Of a DNA stretch of 64,000 nt, positions 2,610-64,000 are shown one piece after another. The DNA is taken from positions 310,001-374,000 of the forward strand of contig OZ249436.1 of the NCBI GenBank assembly GCA_965235115.1, written 5' to 3'. A program made the translations under genes and the position numbers. Within the stretch, counting starts at the first letter, position 1. Every line of letters starts with the position of its first letter. The notes beneath the pieces are model-generated. The model searched no databases. It was given only the letters and a program-made list of their open reading frames with translations, and was not told the DNA's origin. Origin of the DNA: Laetmonice hystrix (lineage: Eukaryota).

Positions 2610-3266
2610 AGGCCCTGGTTTCAGAAAGGCTCTAATCAGCAAGCTGTAAGCTAAGCAGAGCTACGGGACATAAATCTTTCTAGATTGATTTTCATCGATA
2701 TTTTCACAGTGACATAGGCGCCAGAAGCGGGGGGGGGGAGGGGGGGGGCGACCGCCCCCTCAATAATCTGGTTGGGGGGGGCATCGCCCCCCCCCCAATA
2801 ATCTGTGATCATGAATTAAAAAAGCAGGTTTTTCCACATACAGTAGGCCTGTTGAAACCGTGACTTGGGTGCCTCAAAGACTGGGTCGATTGTCCTAATG
2901 ATACATTGTAACCTATTCATTCACGCCTTCAAAACATAAAAAATCCTGCCTCAAAATGGTGTAGAAAAGCGTTTTAATGTGTGTAGTTTTCAGAATTTTC
3001 TCAGGGAGGGCCTCCGACCTAACAATGTTGTAGCCTATGACTTTCGCTTCAGCTCTCTTGCCCCCCCCCCCCCCAATAATAATTTGCTCCCGGTGCCCCT
3101 GCACAGTGATAATAATTTAACCGTGGTGGTAATATTTTCACTGCGGGGAAAATATCTATGAAAATCAATATAGAAAAGTTTAATAGACCTCGTGGGCCAC
3201 CGTAGCCCAGCTTAGCTTCAAGCTTACTGCTTAGAGCCTTTCTGAAACCTTTCTGAAACCGGGCCA
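2610..3266. mobile_element. MITE with ~55-bp imperfect terminal inverted repeats, carrying a nested MITE
   Basis: ggccctggtttcagaaaggctctaa...gctacgg at left is the reverse complement of ccgtagc...ttagagcctttctgaaacc...gggcc at right. Confidence 0.7.
2713..3101. mobile_element. hAT-type MITE with 8-bp target-site duplication CACAGTGA
   Basis: TSD at 2705-2712 and 3102-3109; imperfect TIR CATAGGCGCCAGAAGC / GCTCCCGGTGCCCCTG. Confidence 0.75.
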
Positions 3267-9661: not shown

Positions 9662-31214
<21,553 letters not shown>

Positions 31215-32534: not shown

Positions 32535-33515
32535 ATACTAGAGTCCTTGCTATACTAGAGTCCTTGCTATACACATCTATGTATACACTAGAGTCCTTGC
32601 TATGCACATCTATGTATACACTAGAGTCCTTGCTATACTAGAGTCCTTGATACACATCTATGTATGCACTAGAGTCCTTGCTATACACATCTATGTATAC
32701 ACTAGAGTCCTTGCTATACTAGAGTCCTTGCTATACTAGAGTCCTTGCTATACACATCTATGTATACACTAGAGTCCTTGCTATACTAGAGTCCTTGCTA
32801 TGCACATCTATGTATACACTAGAGTCCTTGCTATGCACATCTATGTATACACTAGAGTCCTTGCTATACTAGAGTCCTTGCTATACACATCTATGTATAC
32901 ACTAGAGTCCTTGCTATACTAGAGTCCTTGCTATACACATCTATGTATACACTAGAGTCCTTGCTATACACATCTATGTATACACTAGAGTCCTTGCTAT
33001 ACACATCTATGTATATACTAGAGTCCTTGCTATACACATCTATGTATACACTAGAGTCCTTGCTATACACATCTATGTATACACTAGAGTCCTTGCTATA
33101 CACATCTATGTATACACTAGAGCCCTTGCTATACTAGAGTCCTTGCTATACACATCTATGTATACACTGGAGTCCTTGCTATACACATCTATGTATACAC
33201 GAGTCCTTGCTATACTAGAGTCCTTGCTATACTAGAGTCCTTGCTATACACATCTATGTATGCACTAGAGCCCTTGCTATACTAGAGTCCTTGCTATACT
33301 AGAGTCCTTGCTATACACATCTATGTATACACTGGAGTCCTTGCTATACACATCTATGTATACACGAGTCCTTGCTATACTAGAGTCCTTGCTATACTAG
33401 AGTCCTTGCTATACACATATATGTATACACTAGAGTCCTTGCTATACTAGAGTCCTTGCTATACACATCTATGTATACACTAGAGTCCTTGCTATACTAG
33501 AGTCCTTGCTATACA
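32535..33515. repeat. Composite minisatellite of 17 bp and 33 bp units
   Basis: actagagtccttgctat with or without acacatctatgtatac. Confidence 0.95.
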
Positions 33516-33974
33516 GATCCATGCTAAATCGCGATGATTCCAAACATAATTTCACCAGCAAAAATGTTGCTTGCGGGCCCTGAAATATTTTTGCTTGTTA
33601 AGACTGTAAGGAAGAGACAGAAAAGAGATGGGGGGGGGGTACCACCTCATGACATGGTGACGCTCGGGCCGGTCGTAGACTGCCTGAATCGACCAAATGT
33701 TGACGGGTTGAGGGAACGTAAATTTGTCTCATGAAATGACAAGAATTAGGCGGGAAGCAGCACCAGACGTGACCGATTTATTATGATAGGCCCTACGGCT
33801 GTATGTGGTTACCACGCGGCCGTATCGGCCGACATCGCCAATATTAGTAGAGGCGACAATACTAGTAATGTCAACGTGCAAGTTGGAATGTAAAAAGACG
33901 TGATTTTTTAAAAGACCGTGTTTATTGTTCGGGTGAGGTGGACCTCGGGACGATGCATGTTGGATTTTTTTTTT

Positions 33975-35470
33975 CCGTTTAATGTCGTTTATTTCACCAC
34001 AAGATATTTACAAGGCAGTGTGCTATTGTATTTTCATGTACATAGTAATAACTTCAGATGGATATTCACATTTGACCAATATGGGACAGAAAAAACCTTA
34101 TGGTGATGTAGGGTTGAAGCTTAAAGCTTAAGTACCCTGTCTCAGTCTCAATACATGGAATTAATTGGAACTCTTATAAAATGATCTTAATACATAAAAA
34201 GGTACAAAATACTGTTACTTAATTCACTGTTAAATATTTCTGCAGTGTGATCTATTCACTATGCGTTTTTGTATGAAAAGTCATATAATACAGTATACTA
34301 TTGTAGTCATTCAATGTCTCCATTCAGAAGCAGGTCTTTAACTAGGCGTTTAAAAACACAGAAGTTCATATCATTAACAGTGGTCAGGATATTACAAACA
34401 TTGTTCCACAGTTTCACTCCAACACACCTTATACATGAGGATTTAAGTTGATTTTTTGATATAGGTATGTGCAACAAAAATTGCTTGTCTTGTGTTATAT
34501 GAATGTATAGTCACATTAACCTGATAGAAATCGTCAAATACATTTGGAAGCATTGAAGTATGATATTTGAACATAAATCGAAGTACCGTGTACTTGTATA
34601 TTTCAGAAAGTTGTAATATCTTTAGTTTTATAAAAACTTGTGAAATAGATTCAAATCGTTTTACTCCAGCCATGATCCTGATTGTCTTTTTCTGTAATTT
34701 AACAAGTGGTAATAATGTCGTGGCATTTGCGCCTCCCCAGACCGTTAAGCAATAGGTGAAGTATGAATAAACAAAAGTGTAATACATATTAACTAATGTT
34801 TCTCGATTAAGGTATTTTCTTGCTTCACGCAATATACCCATAGCTTTAGAAATTTTATTAGATAAGTAGTGCACATGTGGCCTCCAAGATAAATTTTCCT
34901 CCAATATAACTCCAAGAAACTTAATTTTTTCCACTTTAGAAACGTTATCATTGTTAATTTTGACAGGCAATTCTGTTCTGCAGTTTTTATGTTTCGGTCT
35001 AATAAGCATATAGTTAGTTTTCGTAACATTCAGGCTTAATTTGTTTGCGTTCAGCCAATCATAAAGTAATGCTAATTTTTCATTCATGACTGTACATAAA
35101 TAGTGTTCATTTTTTCCATGAACAAAGACGTTTGTGTCGTCTGCAAACATAAGTAAAAATAAGTCTGGTGAGACATTTGCCATATCATTTACATACATAA
35201 GGAACATCAAGGGTCCCAGAATGGACCCTTGTGGTACACCACAATTTACAACAGTTTCTGGCGAGGCAATTTTATTATATAATACTCTTTGCTTTCGGTT
35301 TGATAAATAATCTCTAAACCAGTCCAATGCAATCCCCCTGATTCCATAATGCTCTAATTTCTTTAACATAATATCGTGATTTACTGTGTCGAATGCCTTT
35401 GAGAAATCTAAGAAAACACCTAATATTACTTCCCCTTTTTCAAGAGAGCTTATCAGCCTATCAAGTATTC
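33975..35470 (-). mobile_element. 5'-truncated non-LTR retrotransposon (CR1/L2/jockey-group LINE), RT domain and 3' UTR
   Basis: FLDFSKAFDTVNH, GVPQGSILGPLMF, FADDT, KFLGVILEENLSW in ORF 34443-35369 (reading frame extends to ~35470); frameshift near C-terminus; AATAAA at the 3' end near 33990. Confidence 0.92.
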
Positions 35471-35700
35471 AAAGGATTCATTTCCTTTACAGTTCGATAT
35501 ATATTTATAAAACTTTGTATTCTCTGTCTAGCTGTCTGTCTGCATCTGCATCTGTCTGTCTTTCTGTCTGTCGATATATCGATGGCAGAATTCTACACTT
35601 GCCAAACTATATAGTCTATAGGCCTATACATGTAGACTGGAGGCCGCCGAGAGTGGCCAATAGGCCTATTATAGGCCCTACGCCGGTCATAGATCTATGA

Positions 35701-36053
35701 CACTGGGGGATCGGGGGGGGCAAGGGGCCCGCCCCCTTAAATTTTCATTTTCCCCGCTTTTTTGTAAGAAGATCATGCATTATTCGGACCCTGAAACCAG
35801 TATTCCAACAAAATTCTGTAAAAAAAAGCCTCCTATATTGTATGTGATAGTAACATCGGGCCCAATAGGGCCTCCTCAGTCATCCAGGAGCAACATAACT
35901 CTGGGCCATGTAGCATTGAAAATCAAATAGACCAAAAGGGGCCCAAAATGGCCATAATTAGGCCTACAATAAAATCATGCAGAGCGTAGCGAGGTTAAAA
36001 AATTTTTTAGGTGGCGCCCCCCCCCCCTTATCAAAATCCTGGATCCCCCACTG
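35701..36053. mobile_element. MITE with 5-bp target duplication TATGA
   Basis: CACTGGGGGATC / GGATCCCCCACTG termini; TATGA at 35696-35700 and 36054-36058. Confidence 0.7.
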
Positions 36054-36078
36054 TATGATATAGGATGACTGGGGAAAT

Positions 36079-36355
36079 CGGAGGCGGATCTAGGGGGGCC
36101 AGGGGCCCGGGCCCCCCTTAGATTTTGGACAAGTAGGCCTATAGTAGCCTATAACTTAGGCCCAAATGAACCCAGCCACCCCTTTCGAGCAGTAAACTAA
36201 GGTCTAACAGTAAACCTGGAGATTTAATGAAGATCGGAATTTGTAGGCCTATAAAACACGATTTAGTTAGCAGTTCAGGACCCGCCACCCCTTTCCGACT
36301 TCGTCCCGGTAGTTCCCCCCCCCCCCCCCCAACGAAAATCTTGGATCCGCCCCTG
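36079..36355. mobile_element. Related MITE with 5-bp target duplication GAAAT
   Basis: CGGAGGCGGATCT / GGATCCGCCCCTG termini; GAAAT both sides. Confidence 0.7.
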
Positions 36356-36603
36356 GAAATAGTGAAGTCGCAAATCTGCGGATTTTTTGTTGTTAATTTA
36401 GGCCTACCGAGTATTTTGGCACCGGCGACCAAAAAAAACAAACGCTTTTTGTAAGAAATTTCGAGACCGCTCGACTCAATCTCCTGCAGAACTAAAAATA
36501 AATAGATCTAGGGGTCTAGGCCTATAAAAAGGCGCAGCACTTTAGGCATATCCGTAAAATCAACCGTACGGGCTTCCTCTATAGGCCTATATAGGCCTAG
36601 ATC

Positions 36604-37153
36604 CAGACCTGCCAAGTCCCCCGGTTTCACCGGGGGACTCCCGGGTTTTAACCTGATCCCCCGTCCCCCCGGTATGTCACAATTTTCTCACGGTAAATTG
36701 AACACTCATGTATGCACACAAAGTACACAAAACAGAAGAAAAAGATAGATAAATATGTTTGGACAATTTTAAGTTTAAAAATATAATGAAAAAATATGTT
36801 TGAGTATGTTTTTAAGTACATGTAGCAACTATATGCAACGCAGAACATTAAAAAAGGATACATAAAGAGAAAAGAAACAACATAAAGGAGCTGATGTCTT
36901 AGGACAATTTTTTATTTTAAATTTATTAAACTGATTGTATGTAAGTTGTGTATTTCATGTGTAGAATGTAGTGGCTCCATACTAACGTTTCTCCCCCACT
37001 CATAGGTCTATATCAGCTTCATAATGTAGTCTCCAGGTTTTTCCCCAAAATCTCCAGGTTTTCCCCCCAAAATCCCCCGGTTTTCCTCCCAATTTCCAGG
37101 TTTTTGGACACCAACTTTTAAAAATCTCCCGGTTTCTTCTGTTGGCAGACCTG
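36604..37153. mobile_element. MITE-like element
   Basis: CAGACCTGCCAA / TTGGCAGACCTG termini with subterminal CTCC(C/A)GGTTT motifs; no clear TSD. Confidence 0.55.
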
Positions 37154-37574
37154 TCTGTTTATCTAGATCTATAGGCTATTGGCCCACGGACAGAACAATT
37201 AGGGAAATTAATAGGAAGGCCCCTAGGCCTAACTCATCATGAAAACTGTTTTGGTAGCATTTCCCGGCGCTCACTACTTAGAGGCCTAGGTTTAATTCAC
37301 GCGAATGCTGAGCTGCTCGGAGCTGATAGGCCTACTACATGCCTACCGATAGATAGCCTAGATCTAGAGTAGGCCTATTAGTATTAGGCCTAACTTTCCA
37401 TGAGAATCTGGTTTTAAAAAGGAACCTTTGCTCTACCGTTGGGGGTTGTGCTATTTTTCGAACATAAATTCGTTAATCCTCCCCGATATAAAGAGTATAA
37501 GTATATTCTTTATGAGTTTAAAAACCCAGAGCTCTTGAGACGGACTGTGTCTGTGAGTGCAACACGGGCACCTG

Positions 37575-37615
37575 CCAACTGGCGGGCGCTGCGCAGGACC
37601 TGTGACGTCACGGCG
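37575..37615 (+). promoter_or_regulatory. Candidate CBX proximal promoter elements: full CRE palindrome GTGACGTCAC and E2F-like TGGCGGG
   Basis: TGACGTCA at 37603-37610, ~95 bp upstream of ATG, in a CpG-rich stretch. Confidence 0.45.
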
Positions 37616-37703
37616 AGTATTATGGGATGGATGGCACCCGCTATCGGGGAAGCCCTCGAAATCACCTACACAAAGATTCCTCGCTGTAGACCCCCTCCGA
37701 AAC

Positions 37704-37772
37704 ATGGAGCTTTCAGACGTCGGCGAGCGAGTATTCGCTGCCGAGTGCATCCAGAAGAGACGAATACGGAAG
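37704..37772 (+). CDS. Pc: CBX exon 1 ([23 protein letters not shown])
   Basis: aaacATGG start, AAG|GTAGGT donor. Confidence 0.95.
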
Positions 37773-40700
37773 GTAGGTGTTCTTGTCACTCCGTAAATCG
37801 TGTTTCTTGGTTTCAAAGGGGAGTGTACCGGCACCGGTTAGTGTATTATTAAACGCGTGTGTTTTTATTGCAGGGCCGCGTCGAATACCTTGTCAAATGG
37901 AAGGGATGGAGTCCTAAGTAAGTACAGCTATTTGCCATGGTGGTGGCCACTATGTCCTCATTATCAGCACCTTATTTAGATATTATCGTTCACCAGGAAG
38001 GCTGACGTTTATTATTCGGGTGTTTCAGATATAATACCTGGGAACCAGAAGAAAACATTCTCGATCAACGTCTCCTGGAAGCGTTCCGAACGAGGTAGGT
38101 CGACCATCGCCCCGACCTCGGGCTGAGCTCTCGGTCGGTGGGCCAGGCCCTGGCCGAGGCTGCAGCCATGTCCAGTCTCACCCAGTCACGGTCTCGCTTC
38201 TTACCTTGTTCCCGACCCGAGCTCACCGCTCGGACTGAGCTCTCGGTCGGTGGGCCAGGCCCTGGCCGAGGCTGCAGCCATGTCCAGTCTCACGGTCCCG
38301 CTTCTTACCTTGTTCCCGACCCGAGCTCACCGCTCGGACTGAGCTCTCGGTCGGTGGGCCAGGCCCTGGCCGAGGCTGCAGCCATGTCCAGTCTCACCCA
38401 GTCACGGTCTCGCTTCTTACCTTGTTCCCGACCCGAGCTCACCGCTCAGACTGAGCTCTCGGTCGGTGGGCCAGCTCAAGCCCTGGCCGAGGCTGCAGCC
38501 ATGTCCAGTCTCACGGTCCCGCTTCTTACCTTGTCCCCGACCCGAGCTCACCACTCAGACTGAGCTCTCGGTCGGTGGGCCAGCTCAAGCCCTGGCCGAG
38601 GCTGCAGCCATGTCCAGTCTCACGGTCCTGCTTCTTACCTTGTCCCCGACCCGAGCTCACCACTCAGACTGAGCTCTCGGTCGGTGGGCCAGGCCCTGGC
38701 CGAGGCTGCAGCCATGTCCAGTCTCACGGTCCTGCTTCTTACCTTGTCCCCGACCCGAGCTCGCCACTCAGACTGAGCTCTCGGTCGGTGGGCCAGGCCC
38801 TGACCGAGGCTACAGCCATGTCCAGTCTCACCCAGTCACAGTCCCTCTTCTTACCTTGTCCCCGACCCGAGCTCACCGCTCAGACTGAGCTCTCGGTCGG
38901 TGGGCCAGGCCCTGGCCGAGGCTGCAGCCATGTCCAGTCTCACGGTCCCGCTTCTTACCTTGTTCCCGACCCGAACTTTGCCGCTTGGACTGAGCTTTCG
39001 GTCGGTGGGCCAGGCCCTGGCCGAGGCTGCAGCCATGTCCAGTCTCACGGTCCCGCTTCTTACCTTGTTCCCGACCCGAACTTTGCCGCTCGGACTGAGC
39101 TTTCGGTCGGTGGGCCAGGCCTTGGCCGAGGCTGCAGCCATGTCCAGTCTCACGGTCCCGCTTCTTACCTTGTTCCCTTGGCCGTGCTCTGTAACTGGTA
39201 ACAGTCGCATAAGGATGGCTCCATACAGGACGTGCAATACCAGGAAAATGTGATGAGCCTGCTAAACCGTTTGTAGCTCCAATATTGCAATAATATAATT
39301 TATTGTAAAATTGACTTGTAAATTTATCATGTTATCGCGAGCTGTGGGCCTCTACCATAACCATTCTGGTACTAAGTAGTATAAATTATATGTAGGCCCT
39401 ATATTATATACTATGCTATAGTAATAAGACTGTTATTTAAAAACAAGTTACGAACTGCACTCCTACGTCTGTCCCAGACTCGATACAAAACATCCTAAAG
39501 TTTGTATCAGCAGAACTGATAAAATTGTCTTATTTGTAGATCTATACTACATGTTCAAAATTCTGATTCCATTGTCAATGTCAGTAATTAACGCAGAACA
39601 ATCCATGTGCAGAGTAATCGAGTAACTACCCACAACAATTCCTGTTCAGTCACTTCAGACCAGTGTAATAAATTAACTTTGACAAGTACCGTACCGTGAA
39701 GTACTGGCTTGGATGTAGACTTATATAATTTTACCATAGGCCTACCACAGTATTCACATTTATGGATGGTTACATATTGTAAGTTATGAATGAAATAATA
39801 ACTGGCACCGTACCAACAAAACGGCACCTTGGTAATTATGTCATAATGTGGAAGCATCATGAGATAAAAGTGTTACTCCTTTCATACTTGGTATATTTTT
39901 ATAGAGGCCTACCGGCTCTGGAAAAGTTGCCGCTACAACTGAATTTGATTTTATTGGTCAGTGATGGCATTTTTTGAATACTGCCGTATAGATGTGTGGT
40001 GGGTGTTCAACTGTTGGTATGAAAGGGTAGCCCATCACCTGGCTTTGATATAGGCCACTGACACTCCAGAGCTCAGTTAGACAAGCCCAGACCAGTGACA
40101 GTTGGCCGGCAGATGGACTGGGGTCATTCAACCGTGACATGTACTGGCTGTAGAGCTGTCCACCAGTTCGTGGTCACACTAAGTGGTTCCATTCACCTAC
40201 CTATCTGCATGTATTACAGGCGAAAAATCACAAAGTCTACAAAGTTATTTTAAATGTTCTACAAGTTTATTTTAAATGTTCTACAAGTTTATTTTAAATG
40301 TTCTACAAGTTTATTTTAAATGTTCTAAAGTTTATTTTAAATGTTCAGAGGTGCAGGGGTTTCAATAAGAAAAGTAGTAGAAGGTGAAGTTAACAAAGTA
40401 GGAGGTGGTCCTATAGTGCAGCAGCCGTATGTTGGTGCCGCGCCGACCTTGGGGGTGTGGAGTGGGAAGAGGAACCCCAGTCTCACTGGAGGGGTCTGGG
40501 GGCATCCCCCTGAAAAGTTTTGATTTCTTGGTGTCCGTAGGTGAACTCTGGTGTATTCTGAAAGTAAAATTGGCACCAATTTGTGGGGTAAATAGATCAG
40601 TTCCACTCAGATTTATGTCGGAGGACATACTGGACTAAAAACGATTTTTTATTTTGAGAAAGTTGCGGGCGGTTTTTGGGAAGTAGACGGGCAAAACCGC

Positions 40701-46700: not shown

Positions 46701-48909
46701 AAATCTGTAATACTGACACGACACTTGGACAGATTTATAGCAGTAAATCTGTAATACTGACACGACACTTGGACAGATTTATAGCAGTAAATCTGTAATA
46801 CTGACACGACACTTGGACAGATTTATAGCAGTAAATCTGTAATACTGACACGACACTTGGACAGATTTATAGCAGTAAATCTGTAATACTGACACGACAC
46901 TTGGACAGATTTATAGCAGTAAATCTGTAATACTGACACGACACTTGGACAGATTTATAGCAGTAAATCTGTAATACTGACACGACACTTGGACAGATTT
47001 ATAGCAGTAAAATTATTTTAAGGACGACAGCAGCTAATTCCCTTTGGGCCTTTCAATCCGGTGAAATATATGATCGTTATGACAAGTGAAAGCTCACGCT
47101 CTTCCTCATTGTGTAGTCAGTTCTTGTCAAATCCAATTGTTATCCAGGACAAACTCCTCCTGTAGCAGAGATTCTGCGTGTCATTCAGGATCAAATAATT
47201 ACTACGACTGTCTACACATGATTTCCGTCCTCGCATAAAATTATTTTGACTTGCACATAATTAGTAATAAATATGATGGTAGCTAGGATAGCCATCCATT
47301 TAAAGTATGGTCCAGAGGGAAATAAATAAAAGTTACACCATGTCTAGTCATAACACCAAGTATGTAAAGCAACTTAAAGGTGAAGAAAATACTTCTGCAA
47401 ACTCCTGAGTGTGAGTTTGGAAAAATGGTTTCAAGTAGGGCAGTGTCATTTAAAGTGCTTTCCACTGCTCAGATTTCTTATAAAATAGTTTAAATACACA
47501 TGGTACAGGTAGGTACACTGTAGACACTGTATATGGAGATGTTTGTGTATTGTGTTAGGTGGGTTTCTTTACCTGCCCCCCCCCCCCCACGACATTCCCG
47601 AGCCATTTCGCACCCGTTTCTTCTAATTTGTTAGACAGTAAAGCTGGAAGGAAAGTAAAATATATCAAATCGACCCTACAATCGATAGTTATCTTTAAAT
47701 ATTGACTTATTCAATCAGTTTGGTTTTGGTAAAGGTTTTGAAATGATAAATATTGCTGGTCTGTGCCGTTGTAGTCAAGAGACGCTGAGATTCTCCAGTT
47801 GACTGAATCCACTGTGGGTGTTTCAGGATTCCTCAGACACTGTGTCTGACTCACGATCCGAGGTGAAGTCTGACGATGATGGCGACGACTCGAGTAGCTC
47901 CGACGATAAAGACTTGTCCAGCAGCTCGTCCTCGAGCAGTGACAGTGATGACAGCTCAGACAGCAAGGATGAGGACATACCACTCAAACAGCTGACGGAC
48001 ACTAAGAAAGACAGTGCTGATGGTAAGGTGGACCACAATGACAAGGACAGGTCTACAGACTCTGCGTCCTGCTCGACAGAGGGCAGCACCCAGCAGAGCT
48101 CCCCACCTATCGTCCTCAAACCTTCCGTACCGCCCTCCCGCCGGCAAAAGGTGAAACCTATCAAACTGCAGATGAAACGGTCCGTGCTCAAATACCCAGG
48201 CCCAGGTCGGCCTAGCACCAAGGACCCTAACAAACCGCGCAGACCTAGAGGTCGGCCGCCCAAGAACCCACGGCTTCACGCCCAGAAGGGTGCAGCCAAG
48301 GCCTCTAAACCTCCCACCAACCAAAAGATGACCCCGAAACCAACAGCAGTACCCAAGGAGAAGAGTTCAGCAGGCCCAGGACGGCCACCTACAGCGCAGC
48401 CCACTGTCCCTCCCGTAGTCATCCAGCTCACCCTCCCCCACGGCCACAGACTCGCCACGGGTCTGACGGCAGCCGCCACCTCCAAACGTAAACACAAGGA
48501 GGAGTCGACTGTCACCACCCCCGCCTCTCAAACACACGCTCACACACCATCACCCACAGCGCCCCCTGATGAAGCGGAGGCGACCAGCCCCAAACAGAAG
48601 AAAGTTGAAGAAGCAGTGGGAACAAATGGTGACCATGTGGAGCAGGCCGCACAGCCGGGCGAGGTGGCCGAGTTGGGGAAAGAGGAAGGGCCGGGTGGGG
48701 AGGCAGTGACAGCACCGACCGGGGCCGAACAGCCGGCAGTAACAGCAGCCTCAGCCCCGGAGGTCCGCTCCTTCTGGAGACCACCACCCGAGACAAAACC
48801 ACTGCTGGACCAGGTTCTCATAACTGACGTCACATCCGCTGACGTCACAGTGACGGTGCGGGAGAGCAGTACCGATAATGGTTTCTTTAAACACCGCGGG
48901 GAGGACTGA
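37704..48909 (+). CDS. Pc: Polycomb-group chromobox protein (Pc / CBX2-4-6-7-8 family), spliced. Exons: 37704-37772, 37874-37917, 38029-38094, 43226-43289, 47827-48909 (~441 aa)
   Basis: Chromodomain [56 protein letters not shown]-hook-like [16 protein letters not shown]-hook; C-terminal Pc box [25 protein letters not shown]...GFFK; GT-AG introns with consistent phases. Vertebrate paralogue cannot be assigned. Confidence 0.93.
37874..37917 (+). CDS. Pc: CBX exon 2 ([15 protein letters not shown])
   Basis: ttgcag / GTAAGT; chromodomain aromatic cage. Confidence 0.95.
38029..38094 (+). CDS. Pc: CBX exon 3 ([21 protein letters not shown])
   Basis: tttcag / GTAGGT. Confidence 0.95.
38110..39178. 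repeat. GC-rich tandem repeat, ~104-112 bp unit, ~10 copies, CBX intron 3
   Basis: gagctctcggtcggtgggccaggccctggccgaggctgcagccatgtccagtctcac... Confidence 0.95.
41229..42290. repeat. Minisatellite, 51 bp unit, ~21 copies
   Basis: aagagatctttaacgtacccaggctactctgtctagtctcgtatcgaggcc. Confidence 0.96.
42312..42862. mobile_element. MITE-like element with GGCCGGTGT termini and subterminal palindromic GTGGTAAA/TTTACCAC motifs
   Basis: GGCCGGTGT / ACACCGGCC; repeated gtggtaaagtgacccgggggtcaatttaccac at both ends; internal ttagggtta. Confidence 0.6.
43226..43289 (+). CDS. Pc: CBX exon 4 ([21 protein letters not shown])
   Basis: cacag / GTAAGT; KRGPKPK AT-hook-like motif adjacent to chromodomain in CBX proteins; phases fit exons 3 and 5. 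Confidence 0.88.
43485..44280. repeat. Tandem repeat, ~149 bp unit, ~5 copies
   Basis: gttatcatgtcagaatattgtcagtgaagctcc...ttacggtactcctga. Confidence 0.95.
45029..47010. repeat. Minisatellite, 44 bp unit, ~45 nearly identical copies
   Basis: aaatctgtaatactgacacgacacttggacagatttatagcagt. Confidence 0.98.
47827..48909 (+). CDS. Pc: CBX exon 5 (Ser/Asp-rich, AT-hook, Pc box)
   Basis: tttcag acceptor; 360-codon ORF ending in Pc box then TGA. Confidence 0.93.
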   Translation, partial: DSSDTVSDSRSEVKSDDDGDDSSSSDDKDLSSSSSSSSDSDDSSDSKDEDIPLKQLTDTKKDSADGKVDHNDKDRSTDSASCSTEGSTQQSSPPIVLKPSVPPSRRQKVKPIKLQMKRSVLKYPGPGRPSTKDPNKPRRPRGRPPKNPRLHAQKGAAKASKPPTNQKMTPKPTAVPKEKSSAGPGRPPTAQPTVPPVVIQLTLPHGHRLATGLTAAATSKRKHKEESTVTTPASQTHAHTPSPTAPPDEAEATSPKQKKVEEAVGTNGDHVEQAAQPGEVAELGKEEGPGGEAVTAPTGAEQPAVTAASAPEVRSFWRPPPETKPLLDQVLITDVTSADVTVTVRESSTDNGFFKHRGED

Positions 48910-49602: not shown

Positions 49603-50003
49603 GGGGTGGTTCAACATTTTCAACATTTTCACAAGCGCTAGGGGGGAGGGGGTTAACAGCCAATGTACGCTTTTTTTGAAATCTGAAAAATGTCGATCTG
49701 TAATTGATCAGTCAAGCAGCCCACATACCACCTCTCCCCTTTGTGCGAATCACAGGGTGATGAATATACAAGATCTGCTCACCAGGGGCTTTATGGGGAT
49801 ATTTGTTTTGATGGACCTCCCTACATCACTGACCTATTCTTCGGTTAACTGTGGCCACAAGTAATGATCTAATCTCATCCTTGGTCATCATATAGATCTA
49901 TAATGTAAAAAAACAGACATTTTCTTATGTACGCTTTTGGGAGGGGGGGGGGGTCATCAAAAAGAGTACTCTTTGTACGCTTGTGAAAATGTTGAACCAC
50001 CCC
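49603..50003. mobile_element. PIF/Harbinger-type MITE, TTA target duplication, in CBX 3' region
   Basis: Perfect TIR GGGGTGGTTCAACATTTTC / GAAAATGTTGAACCACCCC; TTA both sides; removing it restores gctttagtgc of the flanking repeat unit. Confidence 0.88.
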
Positions 50004-56428: not shown

Positions 56429-57331
56429 TTTAGGTCAGAGGCAGACTCCACGGCTGGTTGTGGGGACGATCCCTGGTGTCGGTCTGACCCTTAGGTCAGA
56501 GGCAGACTCCACGGCTGGTTGTGGGGACGATCCCTGGTGTCGGTCTGACCCTTAGGTCAGAGGCAGACTCTATGGCTGGTTGTGGGGACGATCCCTGGTG
56601 TCGGTCTGACCCTTAGGTCAGAGGCAGGTTCCACGGCTGGTTGTGGGGACGATCCCTGGTGTCGGTCTGACCCTTAGGTCAGAGGCAGACTCCACGGCTG
56701 GTTGTGGGGACGATCCCTGGTGTTGGTCTGACCCTTAGGTCACAGGCAGACTCTATGGCTGGTTGTGGGGACGATCCCTGGTGTCGGTCTGACCCTTAGG
56801 TCAGAGGCAGGTTCCACGGCTGGTTGTGGGGACGATCCCTGGTGTCGGTCTGACCCTTACCACGGCTGGTTGTGGGGACGATCCCTGGTGTCGGTCTGAC
56901 CCTTAGGTCAGAGGCAGGTTCCACGGCTGGTTGTGGGGACGATCCCTGGTGTCGGTCTGACCCTTACCACGGCTGGTTGTGGGGACGATCCCTGGTGTCG
57001 GTCTGACCCTTACCACGGCTGGTTGTGGGGACGATCCCTGGTGTCGGTCTGACCCTTAGGTCAGAGGCAGACTCCACGGCTGGTTGTGGGGACGATCCCT
57101 GGTGTCGGTCTGACCCTTAGGTCAGAGGCAGGTTCCACGGCTGGTTGTGGGGACGATCCCTGGTGTCGGTCTGACCCTTAGGTCAGAGGTAGGTTCCACG
57201 GCTGGTTGTGGGGATGATCCCTGGTGTTGGTCTGACCCTTACCACGGCTGGTTGTGGGGACGATCCCTGGTGTCGGTCTGACCCTTAGGTCACAGGCAGG
57301 TTCCACGGCTGGTTGTGGGGACTATCCCTGG
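56429..57331. repeat. Minisatellite, 61 bp (and 44 bp) unit containing the last ~15 codons and stop of the ankyrin/SOCS gene, ~16 copies
   Basis: ttaggtcagaggcaggttccacggctggttgtggggacgatccctggtgtcggtctgaccc. Confidence 0.96.
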
Positions 57332-58583
57332 TGAGCTGGAAGTCCGTGAGATGGAGGTTCAGAGTTGCCATGGTAGTTCCAACCCGCTGTACCAGACACG
57401 AACAGTTGACCAGGCGGACAGTAAATGTTTTACTGGCCCAAGTTTTCTCCGGGTCTCGTTCCATCATCACAAACTGTGGCACCGAGTTCGGCGACTTGCT
57501 CTCCGATATCCTCACCGTGAACAAATCGGGAACTAATACAGACATGATAAGTTCTCTGGGCAGAGGAAGCTTGTTGAGTCGTTGTATGAAAAAAGATCCA
57601 GCGCTTGACTGAATAAGTTGTTTCCTTATCACCTCGAGAGAAATGTGCTTGAGCGAGGGAAACTGCTTGAGAACCTCAGCGTCAAATGGATTCCTTGAAC
57701 AGTGTAATCTGCCGCGGTTATACTCGAGGGGAAAGTCTTGACCGTGGAGCAGCAAAGTCAGAATCCCACGATACTTCAAACATGACTGCCTGACCCAAAT
57801 CTTTGAAAAAAGACATCTTCCCTTTTTATCTAAGATGTCCATATTACAGCCAGCCCAAAGCAAGTTATACAAATTGGGTTGAAAGGCGAATTGTTCTGCC
57901 AGGAAATGAAGATGCGAACTTAACTTTAGATCAGAGACAAGTGCAGGATGTTGTCGCAGGAGTTGCTGGAGCAAACTGCCGCACCTGTTGTCCCTTACAA
58001 TGTTATGAATGAGGGCGCGGTCGTTGGGAATCGCACCATATTGTATGAAGGTCTCTGTCACATCCAGATTCTGGCCATCCACAGAGAACACCAAGTCGAG
58101 GGCTGTTTGACCGCGTTTGTTTTTCAACCGGTGGTCGGCACCGTTTTCTAGGAGGAACGCGATGACGTCAGTTTTACGTGATTGGTGCGTCACAAAGCCG
58201 TCCCCCGTCAGAACGTGCAGGGCGGTATCACCGACCGAGTTGGAGGCGTTAACGTCGGCTCCAAGCTGTACCAGCAGTCGTATGACGGAGGGCAAGAAGA
58301 GGTGTGTGGCCGTGTGGAGTGGCGTGTTCCCATCGTGGTCCACCAGCGCCACCTGAGTTCCGTCAAACTTCAGTAGCTGACGTAGAATGTTTTTATCGTC
58401 CGTATAGATAGCCAGGTGGATGGCCTTGTGTCCGCCGCGCGTAACGTCATTTGTGACGTCACCGGTGCCGTTCATGAGCAGTTTCAAAATGTCGCGGAGA
58501 GCGGCACGTCTCTCTGTCACTGACATTTGTGACGGAGTCGGCGTCCGCTTGGCCAGACGCCGCAGTTTGAATCGTTTGATCAT
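57285..58583 (-). CDS. Ankyrin-repeat and SOCS-box protein (ASB-like), apparently single exon, 432 aa
   Basis: Ankyrin repeats GGHKAIHLA, DGNTPLHTA..LLVQLGADVN, GDTALHVL..LLENGAD, RGQTALDL; SOCS-box-like FPSLKHISLEVIRKQL...LNKLPLPREL; in-frame stops upstream of the ATG. Confidence 0.82.
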   Translation of the reverse strand: MIKRFKLRRLAKRTPTPSQMSVTERRAALRDILKLLMNGTGDVTNDVTRGGHKAIHLAIYTDDKNILRQLLKFDGTQVALVDHDGNTPLHTATHLFLPSVIRLLVQLGADVNASNSVGDTALHVLTGDGFVTHQSRKTDVIAFLLENGADHRLKNKRGQTALDLVFSVDGQNLDVTETFIQYGAIPNDRALIHNIVRDNRCGSLLQQLLRQHPALVSDLKLSSHLHFLAEQFAFQPNLYNLLWAGCNMDILDKKGRCLFSKIWVRQSCLKYRGILTLLLHGQDFPLEYNRGRLHCSRNPFDAEVLKQFPSLKHISLEVIRKQLIQSSAGSFFIQRLNKLPLPRELIMSVLVPDLFTVRISESKSPNSVPQFVMMERDPEKTWASKTFTVRLVNCSCLVQRVGTTMATLNLHLTDFQLTRDSPHNQPWNLPVT

Positions 58584-59019
58584 ACTGTCACCATTCTCTC
58601 ATTACGTGTGGATCTATAGCCTGGCTGTCCGCCTGACCTCTTCTGTCGGCATCCCCTGCACTGCTTCGCACAGGGTTAAATGCGGAGCCCCTCAGGCCTA
58701 TTATCGGAATGCATGTAGGCTCTCAATCTATAGCTCGGCTAGAAGCTGAACGAGGTATAGCATGCGGCCTGCGACAATCGGTGAGAATCCAATGGCAGTT
58801 TGTCGGGTAAACACGACAGACACGACCCAGTGCACCGTGACATTAGTCTGGCATGGAAAAACGAGTTGAGACCAAGACACACAGTGGGTGGAAGTAATGT
58901 GGGGCATAATGCAATCCCACTCGGTGTAAGTCACCATAGCCGTCATTTAGTTGTTCTCATGGCGAGGAATAGGCCGCCTATCGAAGAATAGGCTACGTGA
59001 AGAAGGCTACACGTCATTT

Positions 59020-59187
59020 CAGTAGTGTAGGAAGGAAAAAAATATTGGGGGGGGGGGGGGGGGCAGAAGTGACGTCATAATGACTTGCGCCTATGTTTTT
59101 GCATTGAGCCATGCAGTCATTTTATAAATATTGGGGGGGGGGGGGGGGGGCAGCAGCCCCTTCTGCCCCCAGCTTTCGACACCCCTG
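59020..59187. mobile_element. Short MITE with 5-bp target duplication CATTT
   Basis: CAGTAGTGTAGG / TCGACACCCCTG termini; G-runs inside. Confidence 0.55.
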
Positions 59188-59577
59188 CATTTCACTCAAG
59201 GACATGCATGCGATTGGATCTATAGACCTATGCCTTACCGTGGACCTAAATCGCTTTTAAAATCGCTTTTTCTACGTATGTTGATAGCTTGGATCCATGT
59301 TTGAAACAATGTCTGAAACAATAGGCCCCTATTTGTGCTTTGAGTTGTCACTGATGGTCTTCGTTGTTTGATTATTTGTTTGATATTTTAATGTTTCAGT
59401 ATAAGTTAAAGTATTATATTATGTATAAGTTAAGTTTTTATGTTGCTTATTTATCAATTGAGTTGGTAGGCCTAGGCCTATCTGGATACATCGGGAAACC
59501 AGCAAATGGGAAGAAAGATCAGAGGCAGGTCTGTGGATTTTAAAACTGTCAGTTGCTTGGTTTCTTGGGTTAAACAC

Positions 59578-63158: not shown

Positions 63159-64000
63159 ATCTGGAGAAGATACTCAAATGAGAAGTGTACACATCACAAC
63201 CATATATCTGTAGCGAACGTACGAGACCTATACGTTTGACAGTTATACATCCGGCCAAAGAATAATAATTTTGGGGTGCGGAGGTTCAATTTGACGTACC
63301 AAAAATGTAGCCATTTTTCGCTTATCATTGCTTTAACCTGTCTCTCGCCTAAGAGCCACAGGTGCCTGCCAGCCCGGCAGGTGTACGTGGTGATTCCACC
63401 GCTGGCCGGAAGGCGGCAGTGCAGTCAAAACGAAAAAATACACAGAGATGTTGCAGGCAGAGGCATGCCATACGTTTCGTCTATCATCTACTTCCATTTA
63501 ATCTGTGTCCCCTACAGACCATCTGTAAGCGTCCGACAACGTTGTCAGGTCGTCCCAATGATTGTTTGCCGTAAAGGTTTAGTTAATAAGTGCAAATGAC
63601 GTTGTACGCCTTTTCTATATCAGATATCCCATCCCCAAGTAACAAAGAAAGAAAGAAAGAAAGAAAGAAAGAATACACAGAGATGTTGCACGCAGAAAAC
63701 ACCAGGGTGCAGCGCAGCTCCACTGATGCGCGACGGCGGCGCTGACTGCACTGCCGCCTTCCGTCCGGCGGTGGAATCACCACGTACACCTGCCGGGCTG
63801 GCAGGCACCTGTGGCTCTTAGGCGAGAGACAGGTTAAAGCAATGATAATCGAAAAATGGGGTAGTCAAATTGAAACTACGCACCCCAAAATTATTATTCT
63901 TAGGCCAGATGTATAACTGTCAAGCGTATAGGTCTCGTACGTTCGCTACAGATAAATGGTTGTGATGTGTACACTTCCCATTTGAGTATCTTCTCCAGAT
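63159..64000. mobile_element. Foldback-like element: ~265-bp inverted arms (63159-63427 and 63743-64000) around a 315-bp spacer
   Basis: atctggagaagatactcaaatg...ggcggcagtgcagtca is the reverse complement of tgactgcactgccgcc...tttgagtatcttctccagat; may extend past window end. Confidence 0.8.

Follow-up and report, generated by a model that had tools for sequence, protein, structure and literature searches.

Genes and motif cluster at the locus

The analysed window is a 64-kb stretch of the Laetmonice hystrix genome (contig OZ249436.1, positions 310,001 to 374,000), and all coordinates below are those of the window. It carries LIG1 on the plus strand, ending near 31 kb, a Polycomb-type CBX gene, and an ankyrin gene on the minus strand with its start near 58590. 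We take the first coding exon of the CBX gene (Table 1) to hold the start of its chromodomain; the last CBX exon (47803-48906) carries a CBX7_C motif. Upstream of this gene lies a dense cluster of short palindromic words bounded by TA, dominated by the three octamers TAGGCCTA, TAGATCTA and TACATGTA. We consider it likely that this cluster consists of accumulated excision footprints of TA-targeting cut-and-paste transposons, piled up with age in promoter-flank DNA.

Table 1 Features of the window in and around the motif cluster
Feature	Positions	Strand	Description
Motif cluster	35619..37392	.	19 palindromic octamers + 5 related 7- to 9-mers
Unique block A	35601..35700	.	4 octamers (35619, 35627, 35661, 35690) + TAGGCCCTA (35672); single-copy depth
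Element E1	35701..36053	.	Non-coding high-copy terminal inverted repeat (TIR) element, CAGTGG-type ends, 5-bp duplication TATGA
TAGGCCTA inside E1	35959..35966	.	6-bp insertion at TA relative to other family copies
Element E2	36079..36355	.	High-copy TIR element, CAGGGGCGGATCC-type ends, 5-bp duplication GAAAT; contains TAGGCCTA at 36134 and 36244, TAGCCTA at 36145
Unique block B	36356..36603	.	5 octamers (36399, 36503, 36517, 36582, 36592)
Element E3	36604..37153	.	High-copy, CAGACCTGCCAA-type ends, without clean target duplication; contains TACATGTA (36817) and TAGGTCTA (37003)
Unique block C	37154..37400	.	6 octamers (37164, 37224, 37327, 37359, 37370, 37385) + two 7-mers
Presumed core promoter and leader of CBX	37401..37703	+	TGACGTCA at 37603; promoter role suggested by position
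First coding exon of the Polycomb-type CBX gene	37704..37772	+	
Long interspersed nuclear element (LINE) reverse-transcriptase fragment	34479..35468	-	RVT_1, E 4e-26; open 330-codon frame (young)
Weaker motif cluster upstream of the ankyrin gene	58601..59560	.	4.2 words per kb

Three specific words are in excess

Cluster statistics were computed on 35601-37400 against 1000 dinucleotide shuffles. TAGGCCTA occurs 13 times (35619, 35661, 35959, 36134, 36244, 36399, 36517, 36582, 36592, 37224, 37327, 37370 and 37385; shuffle mean 0.063), TAGATCTA four times (35690, 36503, 37164, 37359; mean 0.029) and TACATGTA twice (35627, 36817; mean 0.018). None of these counts was reached in any of the 1000 shuffles. 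The coordinates listed in the first-pass annotation, which had drawn attention to the cluster, are all exact, and expected counts are indeed far below one. The cluster holds 4/7 of the window copies of TAGATCTA and 2/7 of those of TACATGTA. TAGGCCTA is found 17 times in the whole 64 kb, with copies outside the cluster at 39737, 59467, 59473 and 62929; the recurrence noticed earlier at 39737, 59467 (doubled) and 62929 is correct. Because only four of the 16 palindromic TA-NN-NN-TA words are present in the cluster, the fourth being a single copy of TAAATTTA, the excess concerns three specific words and not palindromes generally.

Outside the cluster, four copies of TAGGCCTA were seen against 0.28 expected (33,357 non-tandem bases; reached in 0/100 shuffles). 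The rest of the window is likewise enriched, and the CBX-upstream cluster is therefore a local peak on a wider excess. The cluster also contains words that the earlier list did not include, namely TAGCCTA/TAGGCTA at 36145, 37172 and 37354, TAGGCCCTA at 35672 and TAGGTCTA at 37003. Words of the motif family reach 13.9 per kb of non-tandem DNA in the cluster. Their density falls to 4.2 ahead of the ankyrin gene, to 1.3 in the CBX introns and to 0.38 in the LIG1 body, and none was found in three coding or exon-rich segments of the window. TAGGCCTA itself was not found in 1-33500, the stretch holding LIG1, as had been stated for the body of that gene.

Fifteen of the 19 octamers lie in ~620 unique bases and four in ~1180 element bases (p 9e-5), these four being spread over three different high-copy elements. 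The words do occur, as first described, both in unrelated miniature inverted-repeat transposable elements (MITEs) and in unique DNA. E1, with a contig depth of about 1e4 to 3e5, is presumably hAT-like, with a target other than TA. Since the target duplications of E1-E3 are not TA, these elements are passengers and not makers of the words. Self-comparison of the window revealed no additional full copies of E1, E2 or E3. E1 and E2 lie side by side and resemble each other in their GGCGGATCC-type ends and in the length of their target duplications, which at 5 bp is at the lower limit for hAT elements.

A six-letter gain at TA and a possible relation to DNA age

The insertion at 35959 was examined in contigs from three runs of one sample of one individual, runs that are not mutually independent and are possibly the source of the assembly. 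Other E1 copies lack the six letters in 15, 11 and 8 contigs (three runs), five letters in 8, 13 and 10 contigs, and four letters in 6, 6 and 6. The 5- and 4-letter gaps are read as 5+1 and 4+2, with rows of matching depth at 35965 (1 letter) and 35964 (2 letters). Combined, these gap classes amount to 29, 30 and 24 contigs, or 68%, 69% and 55% of the depth, the depth outside the listed classes not being itemised. Because most of the E1-family depth is without those six letters, TAGGCCTA at 35959 was inserted at TA. The first-pass annotation had proposed comparing the element copies for a change of TA to TAGGCCTA by a 6-bp insertion, and at this site the outcome is positive.

When each word is reduced to its TA, the unique DNA counts 18 words over 49 TA sites and the elements 6 over 77 (p 0.0004); in the unique flank, roughly every third ancestral TA bears a word. 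The presumed core promoter and leader (303 bases) has motifs at 0/18 TA sites, and 311 bases separate the end of the cluster from the ATG. Motifs are also found at 0/106 TA sites of 34300-35450, in the LINE fragment that sits 2.2 kb upstream of the CBX start. Word density by DNA age (unique > elements > LINE) looks like a clock, with the caveat that the LINE fragment also lies further from the start site. In addition, the observed/expected (o/e) ratio of TpG+CpA is 0.80 in the cluster, below the 1.13-1.22 of most other segments. Such a low value would agree with a lack of methylation, but the CpG o/e of the cluster (0.63) is not high. Contigs over 37111-38100 have 6-10 single-letter differences and 0-1 gaps relative to the window, and retain all six block C octamers.

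The same words in metagenome loci of other animals

Metagenome contigs were scanned for a mixed pattern of TAGGCCTA, then TA(G/C)AT(G/C)TA, then TAGGCCTA, within 30 bases each. At least 121 stretches were obtained, compared with 4 from 596 billion bases of prokaryote genomes and a single one from viral contigs. A Pfam scan of the 84 longest of 147 frames gave 7 matches, which include the ligand domain of a nuclear receptor, a receptor of the rhodopsin type and an Ig domain. Because of these matches, the matched loci at least are animal DNA. Of 120 loci, 12 were removed, 7 as duplicates and 5 as simple or tandem repeats; the 108 loci that were kept comprise 268,970 bases.

Three loci hold a foldback element with TA-CACCGTG ends (L074 760-1137, L130 207-602, L071 30-247). 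At three sites that are plain TA in one arm, the opposite arm carries TAGGCCTA, TAGATCTA and TAGGCCTA, with a gain of exactly 6 letters at each; in one copy, the first insertion is absent and a fourth stands beside the second. All four insertions are confined to one arm, which possibly results from local accessibility, from an orientation effect or from one ancestral burst. Among 14 distinct octamer sites with an informative homologue, 9 are 6-7 letters longer than that homologue. These counts were made by eye, with self-palindromic alignments excluded, and they replace an indel tally dominated by the simple-repeat locus L042. Judged from these alignments, insertion at TA is the main, though not the sole, origin of the octamers.

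Two loci of the collection, L108 and L042, consist near-wholly of TA-bounded short words (CTAG-, GGCC-, CATG-rich mosaics) and were excluded from all counts; L042 has 62 copies of TAGGCCTA mixed with telomere-like TTAGGG units. A scan of viral contigs for triple TAGGCCTA gave 17 stretches, mostly tandem repeats. In one contig of the viral collection (L010, ~2900-3200), a non-tandem cluster of 7 TAGGCCTA and TAGGTACCTA words resembles the arrays of the present locus.

Spectrum and flanks of the inserted words

The letters standing between two TA were counted in the 108 loci, with the search triple masked and the expectation taken from 20 shuffles. The GGCC insert is strongly in excess (167 vs 2.6 expected), as are GGC/GCC (140 vs 23.6) and GGCCC (18 vs 0.9). 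Smaller excesses are observed for CATG (45 vs 7.6), CAG/CTG (81 vs 43), CAGTG (11 vs 3.3), CCGG (12 vs 2.6), CCG/CGG (49 vs 25) and GATC (8 vs 3.1). The ratios between classes are biased, since loci were chosen for GGCC plus CATG or GATC words. GGTC (39 vs 5.4) and GGCT (42 vs 6.9) look like decay, because each is a single transition away from GGCC. The remaining spectrum suggests that the outermost two or three letters of an element tip are joined to their reverse complement, in combinations of the types 2+2, 3+0 and 3+2; tips GGC, CAG and CCG would each account for one product of every type.

The flanks are symmetric. A purine is found at -1 in 233/334 cases versus 51% over all TA, and A or T at -2 in 230/334; in the window, the commonest letters are A at -1 and T at -2. 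Such a symmetric TA target preference is as expected of a Tc1/mariner-type footprint.

Excision footprints as the probable origin

Tc1/mariner elements duplicate TA, and their excision by staggered cuts leaves 2-3 terminal letters (bioRxiv 10.1101/659086). By analogy with this chemistry, an element would insert at an accessible TA, duplicating it, and would later be excised by staggered cuts, so that the outermost 2-3 letters of each of its ends stay behind in the flanking DNA. End-joining that retained the letters of both tips would produce TA-GG-CC-TA, TA-GA-TC-TA or TA-CA-TG-TA; alternatively, the same word could arise if 3-letter tips with GC or AT at their end paired over two letters. The net result is a change of TA to TA+4+TA, six letters longer. 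Scars nest, because each of them supplies two new TA targets. Selection probably purges whole elements beside the promoter and tolerates a 6-bp scar and, since whole elements are removed and scars tolerated, scars would accumulate with the age of the DNA. This would give many scars in the old unique flank and few in the younger elements, and would leave the young LINE and the core promoter free of them. The net gain is observed; we infer the rest of the scheme, namely the transposase, how it cuts, a bias towards accessible DNA and the action of selection.

Net insertion at TA with duplication of TA, the mark of a Tc1/mariner footprint, was found at 35959 and at the 9/14 comparable sites in other animals, so that TA-duplicating micro-insertions gained afterwards, as proposed in the first-pass annotation, are borne out. 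Its attribution of these insertions to transposon excision identifies the best cause, which is unproven, as no GGCC or GATC source element was found. Its other suggestion, hairpin-repair footprints, is not supported: the inserts are fixed words without mirror copies of the flanks. In a hAT-type hairpin-repair footprint, the insert is an inverted copy of flanking DNA and varies by site. Source elements were searched for through inverted repeats and shared termini. In the metagenome loci, the termini TA-CAGGGTG (13), TA-CACCGTG (10) and TA-CACTGTG (7) could leave TACATGTA; CATG-class tips match resident TA-target elements in those loci.

Several observations weigh against this origin. In this cluster, insertion is shown for just 1/19 octamers, and no 6-letter presence/absence difference was seen among the contigs of the one individual. 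In the metagenome loci, 4/14 octamer sites have the same length as their homologue and 1/14 is unclear; 7- and 9-mer sites are insertions in 1/7, of 5 letters. No TA-GGC or TA-GA element family was found in the window or in the 269 kb of loci, a sample far too small to prove absence. GGCC is the commonest scar, yet only TA-CA families were found as resident elements, and the GG-ended elements of the window duplicate 3 bp, TAA or TTA. The symmetric 4-letter product dominates (GGCC 167 > GGC/GCC 140), unlike in measured footprint spectra, in which products of 2 or 3 letters from one side prevail; a tip ending in GC might let the overhangs anneal and favour TAGGCCTA, which may explain this dominance. 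CA/TG inserts are close to expectation (206 vs 197), and fewer GG/CC inserts occur than expected (70 vs 105). As described in bioRxiv 10.1101/659086, the eight footprints of Sleeping Beauty do not include TACATGTA, and the commonest footprints of Tc3 are TACATA and TATGTA. Finally, the cluster has a CpG o/e of 0.63, which is not high. No clear nucleosome-length (~200-bp) motif spacing was seen, in a comparison of low power, and promoter words in the metagenome loci have similar densities close to clusters and far away (2.98 vs 3.16 per 10 kb).

Several candidate sources were set aside. ISL2EU makes an AT duplication (PMC4482050), and ISL2EU or Harbinger footprints, with AT, TAA or TTA duplications, give no TA-GGCC-TA with a net gain of 6. 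A 112-bp TA-GGGGCC candidate (L075) has similar sequence continuing beyond its left end, and a pogo-like DDE_1 fragment in L031 is without GG ends. Sailor has a TATA duplication and GT or CC ends (PMC8533490). Mosquito, with a TA duplication, supplied no source in the portion of PMC10379824 available, nor did the available portion of PMC9179366 supply a source element.

If the footprint origin is true, promoter flanks keep a countable record of transposon visits, ~140/1800 bases here being scar DNA. Sequence alone would then suffice to map germ-line accessibility and relative age through the density of scars, and the scars would reveal an active GG-ended TA-targeting element with few visible copies. 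The finding also offers a testable origin for unexplained promoter words in other taxa, with a caution that strongly enriched palindromic promoter words can stem from a mutational process and not from selection for binding.

Alternative explanations

A host enzyme system could make the same insertions without any mobile source for the dominant GGCC and GATC inserts. A domesticated transposase or other nuclease would make staggered breaks at accessible germ-line TA; fill-in, a short tail such as GG on both ends and head-to-head joining would follow, and this break-and-fill activity would write four-letter words in several animal lineages. Such an origin is unlikely, although it fits the lack of a source element for the dominant GGCC class (in a source search that spanned just 0.3 Mb), the recurrence of the same three words in several animals, and the series GGC, GGCC, GGCCC, GGCCCC, readable as G-run + C-run. 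Free tailing predicts GC, GG and GGG inserts, but these are not in excess (63 vs 70, 70 vs 105 and 9 vs 22, respectively); GATC, CATG and CCGG would each require their own tail, and CATG has matching resident elements. We know of no such word-writing enzyme. If true, a dominant scar without mobile source would be far more surprising than footprints: promoter flanks would be steadily rebuilt, and lineage-typical palindromic promoter words, usually read as factor-binding sites, would be created in this way. Templated insertion during end-joining would be a different route, in which a broken TA end would anneal to a nearby scar and be extended by copying the adjoining letters, so that clusters grow from few founders. 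Motif density does peak <100 bp from a cluster (4.3 per kb vs 1.4-2.5 further out), and two pairs of window copies have 13-14 context letters in common. On the other hand, documented insertions are exactly TA+4+TA without flanking letters, two-letter priming leaves the dominance of 3/16 palindromic words unexplained, and doublets sharing a TA make up only 5/220 motifs outside the search triple, about the overall-rate expectation. We therefore regard self-seeding as very unlikely.

It is equally doubtful that the words are selected binding sites of a dimeric factor, as a homotypic cluster or a Polycomb-response element built by point mutation. The cluster lies directly in front of the CBX promoter, PsMyb37 of Phytophthora binds TACATGTA as a promoter motif (PMC11134190), the same octamer has been listed as a site of Irx (PMC3520976), Zeste-type words are in excess (reached in 2/300 shuffles; one of five tests), and the same-length homologues mentioned above would agree with point mutation. 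Against selected sites stand the exact 6-letter insertion origin, three unrelated cores with the TA frame alone in common, flanks and spacing that are not conserved, the abundance of the transition derivatives GGTC (39) and GGCT (42), as in decaying sequence, and the lack of enrichment of Pho and GAF words. Least probable of all, to the point of being hardly credible, is that the words belong to a repeat consensus or are an artefact of assembly or of the library (GGCC, GATC and CATG are restriction-site words). Some inserted words do become inherited parts of repeats, two being common to three element copies, but 15/19 octamers lie in single-copy DNA and the E1 family is mostly without the word; MITE consensus membership, which the first-pass annotation had named as one finding that would overturn its view, is largely refuted. 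The motifs of the unique blocks are unchanged in contigs of three runs, and homologous loci of different metagenome records share motifs, so that a restriction-site library artefact was rejected.

Promoter and Polycomb context

The open promoter chromatin invoked in the first-pass annotation finds agreement at both gene starts visible in the window (2/2), and promoter specificity rests on these two. The metagenome loci give no near/far contrast: promoter words are ~4-fold over shuffles both <1 kb from a cluster (41 vs 10) and >1.5 kb away (31 vs 8). Polycomb words, known from Drosophila, were compared with shuffles in the cluster, giving Pho 3 vs 4.0, GAF 1 vs 1.9, Zeste 4 vs 0.8, Dsp1 12 vs 6.8 and GTGT 8 vs 5.7. 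Pho and GAF are at or below shuffle level, and the palindromic words also cluster in unrelated animal DNA and upstream of the ankyrin gene, so that the earlier suggestion of a Polycomb-response element is not supported. Rfam gave no match within 33500-40500. As accumulated footprints, the cluster would be a mutational record and no dedicated Polycomb element, and the CBX locus a dense example of scar accumulation and no special device. A later use of the words as protein-binding sites is possible.

Comparison with known systems

Single excision footprints have long been known. In a search mainly of open literature, titles and abstract openings, we found neither a description of their mass natural accumulation nor a publication on TAGGCCTA or TAGATCTA as an animal genomic word. 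Tc1/mariner and pogo footprints come closest. According to Eide and Anderson 1988, as quoted in PMC3520976, Tc1 occasionally leaves TACATGTA as a rare footprint, Sleeping Beauty leaves TACAGTA/TACTGTA (bioRxiv 10.1101/659086), and the pogo element Passer leaves 0-4-bp footprints with a preference for promoters and enhancers (PMC9976928). The likeness extends to the TA duplicated around a few fixed letters, to the word TACATGTA itself, to the CAG/CTG and CAGTG excess and the TA-CA...TG-TA elements in the animal loci, and to the promoter bias of Passer. The present case differs in being a dense natural deposit rather than single events, in the dominance of a symmetric 4-letter product that is rare or absent in measured spectra, and in GGCC and GATC cores for which no matching element was found.

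Other systems share single traits. PHISTA, a group of Harbinger-related elements of rust fungi (PMC12730594), combines TA duplications with G-starting ends, the geometry needed for a TA-GG-CC-TA scar. In contrast, the ends examined start with GGGGG and not GGC, the accessible part of that source reports them from rust fungi only, and no such element was found here. In hypomethylated promoter domains of medaka and zebrafish, short motifs (top 6-mer GCTAAC) are enriched in nucleosome linkers (PMC5607494). These words, the most similar unexplained case found in print, are likewise short, gather in promoter domains and for the most part do not resemble motifs of known factors, and their origin was left open by the authors; the words are different, a ~200-bp periodicity exists there that is not seen here, single-nucleotide polymorphism (SNP) rates are low in those linkers, and no insertion origin is proposed in the accessible text. 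In Phytophthora, the identical octamer TACATGTA is abundant upstream of genes, as a functional promoter site bound by PsMyb37 (PMC11134190, PMC3520976). There, the authors argued against a footprint origin, whereas here an insertion origin is shown for some sites.

Other features of the window

The weaker cluster upstream of the ankyrin gene contains TAGGCTA at 58989, TAGACCTA at 59223 and two copies of TAGGCCTA (59467, 59473) with one TA in common. Two longer variants, TA-GGCCGCC-TA (58969) and TA-GGCCCC-TA (59322), are single cases that could represent a full GGCC plus part of a second tip. The ankyrin-repeat frame itself (57288-58598, minus strand) is intronless with 437 codons, which is unusual here, as the other genes of the region are split by many introns; it may be a retrocopy or belong to an expanded family.

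Tandem repeats make up ~45% of the window (28,919 bases), and many introns have their own unrelated minisatellite, with units of 13 to ~150 bases. Two small Harbinger-like TIR elements (23066-23311 and 49604-50002) have G-run ends and TAA or TTA duplications. At the end of the window, a long inverted repeat (63159-64000) has 269-base arms that are 92% alike and continues past the window end.

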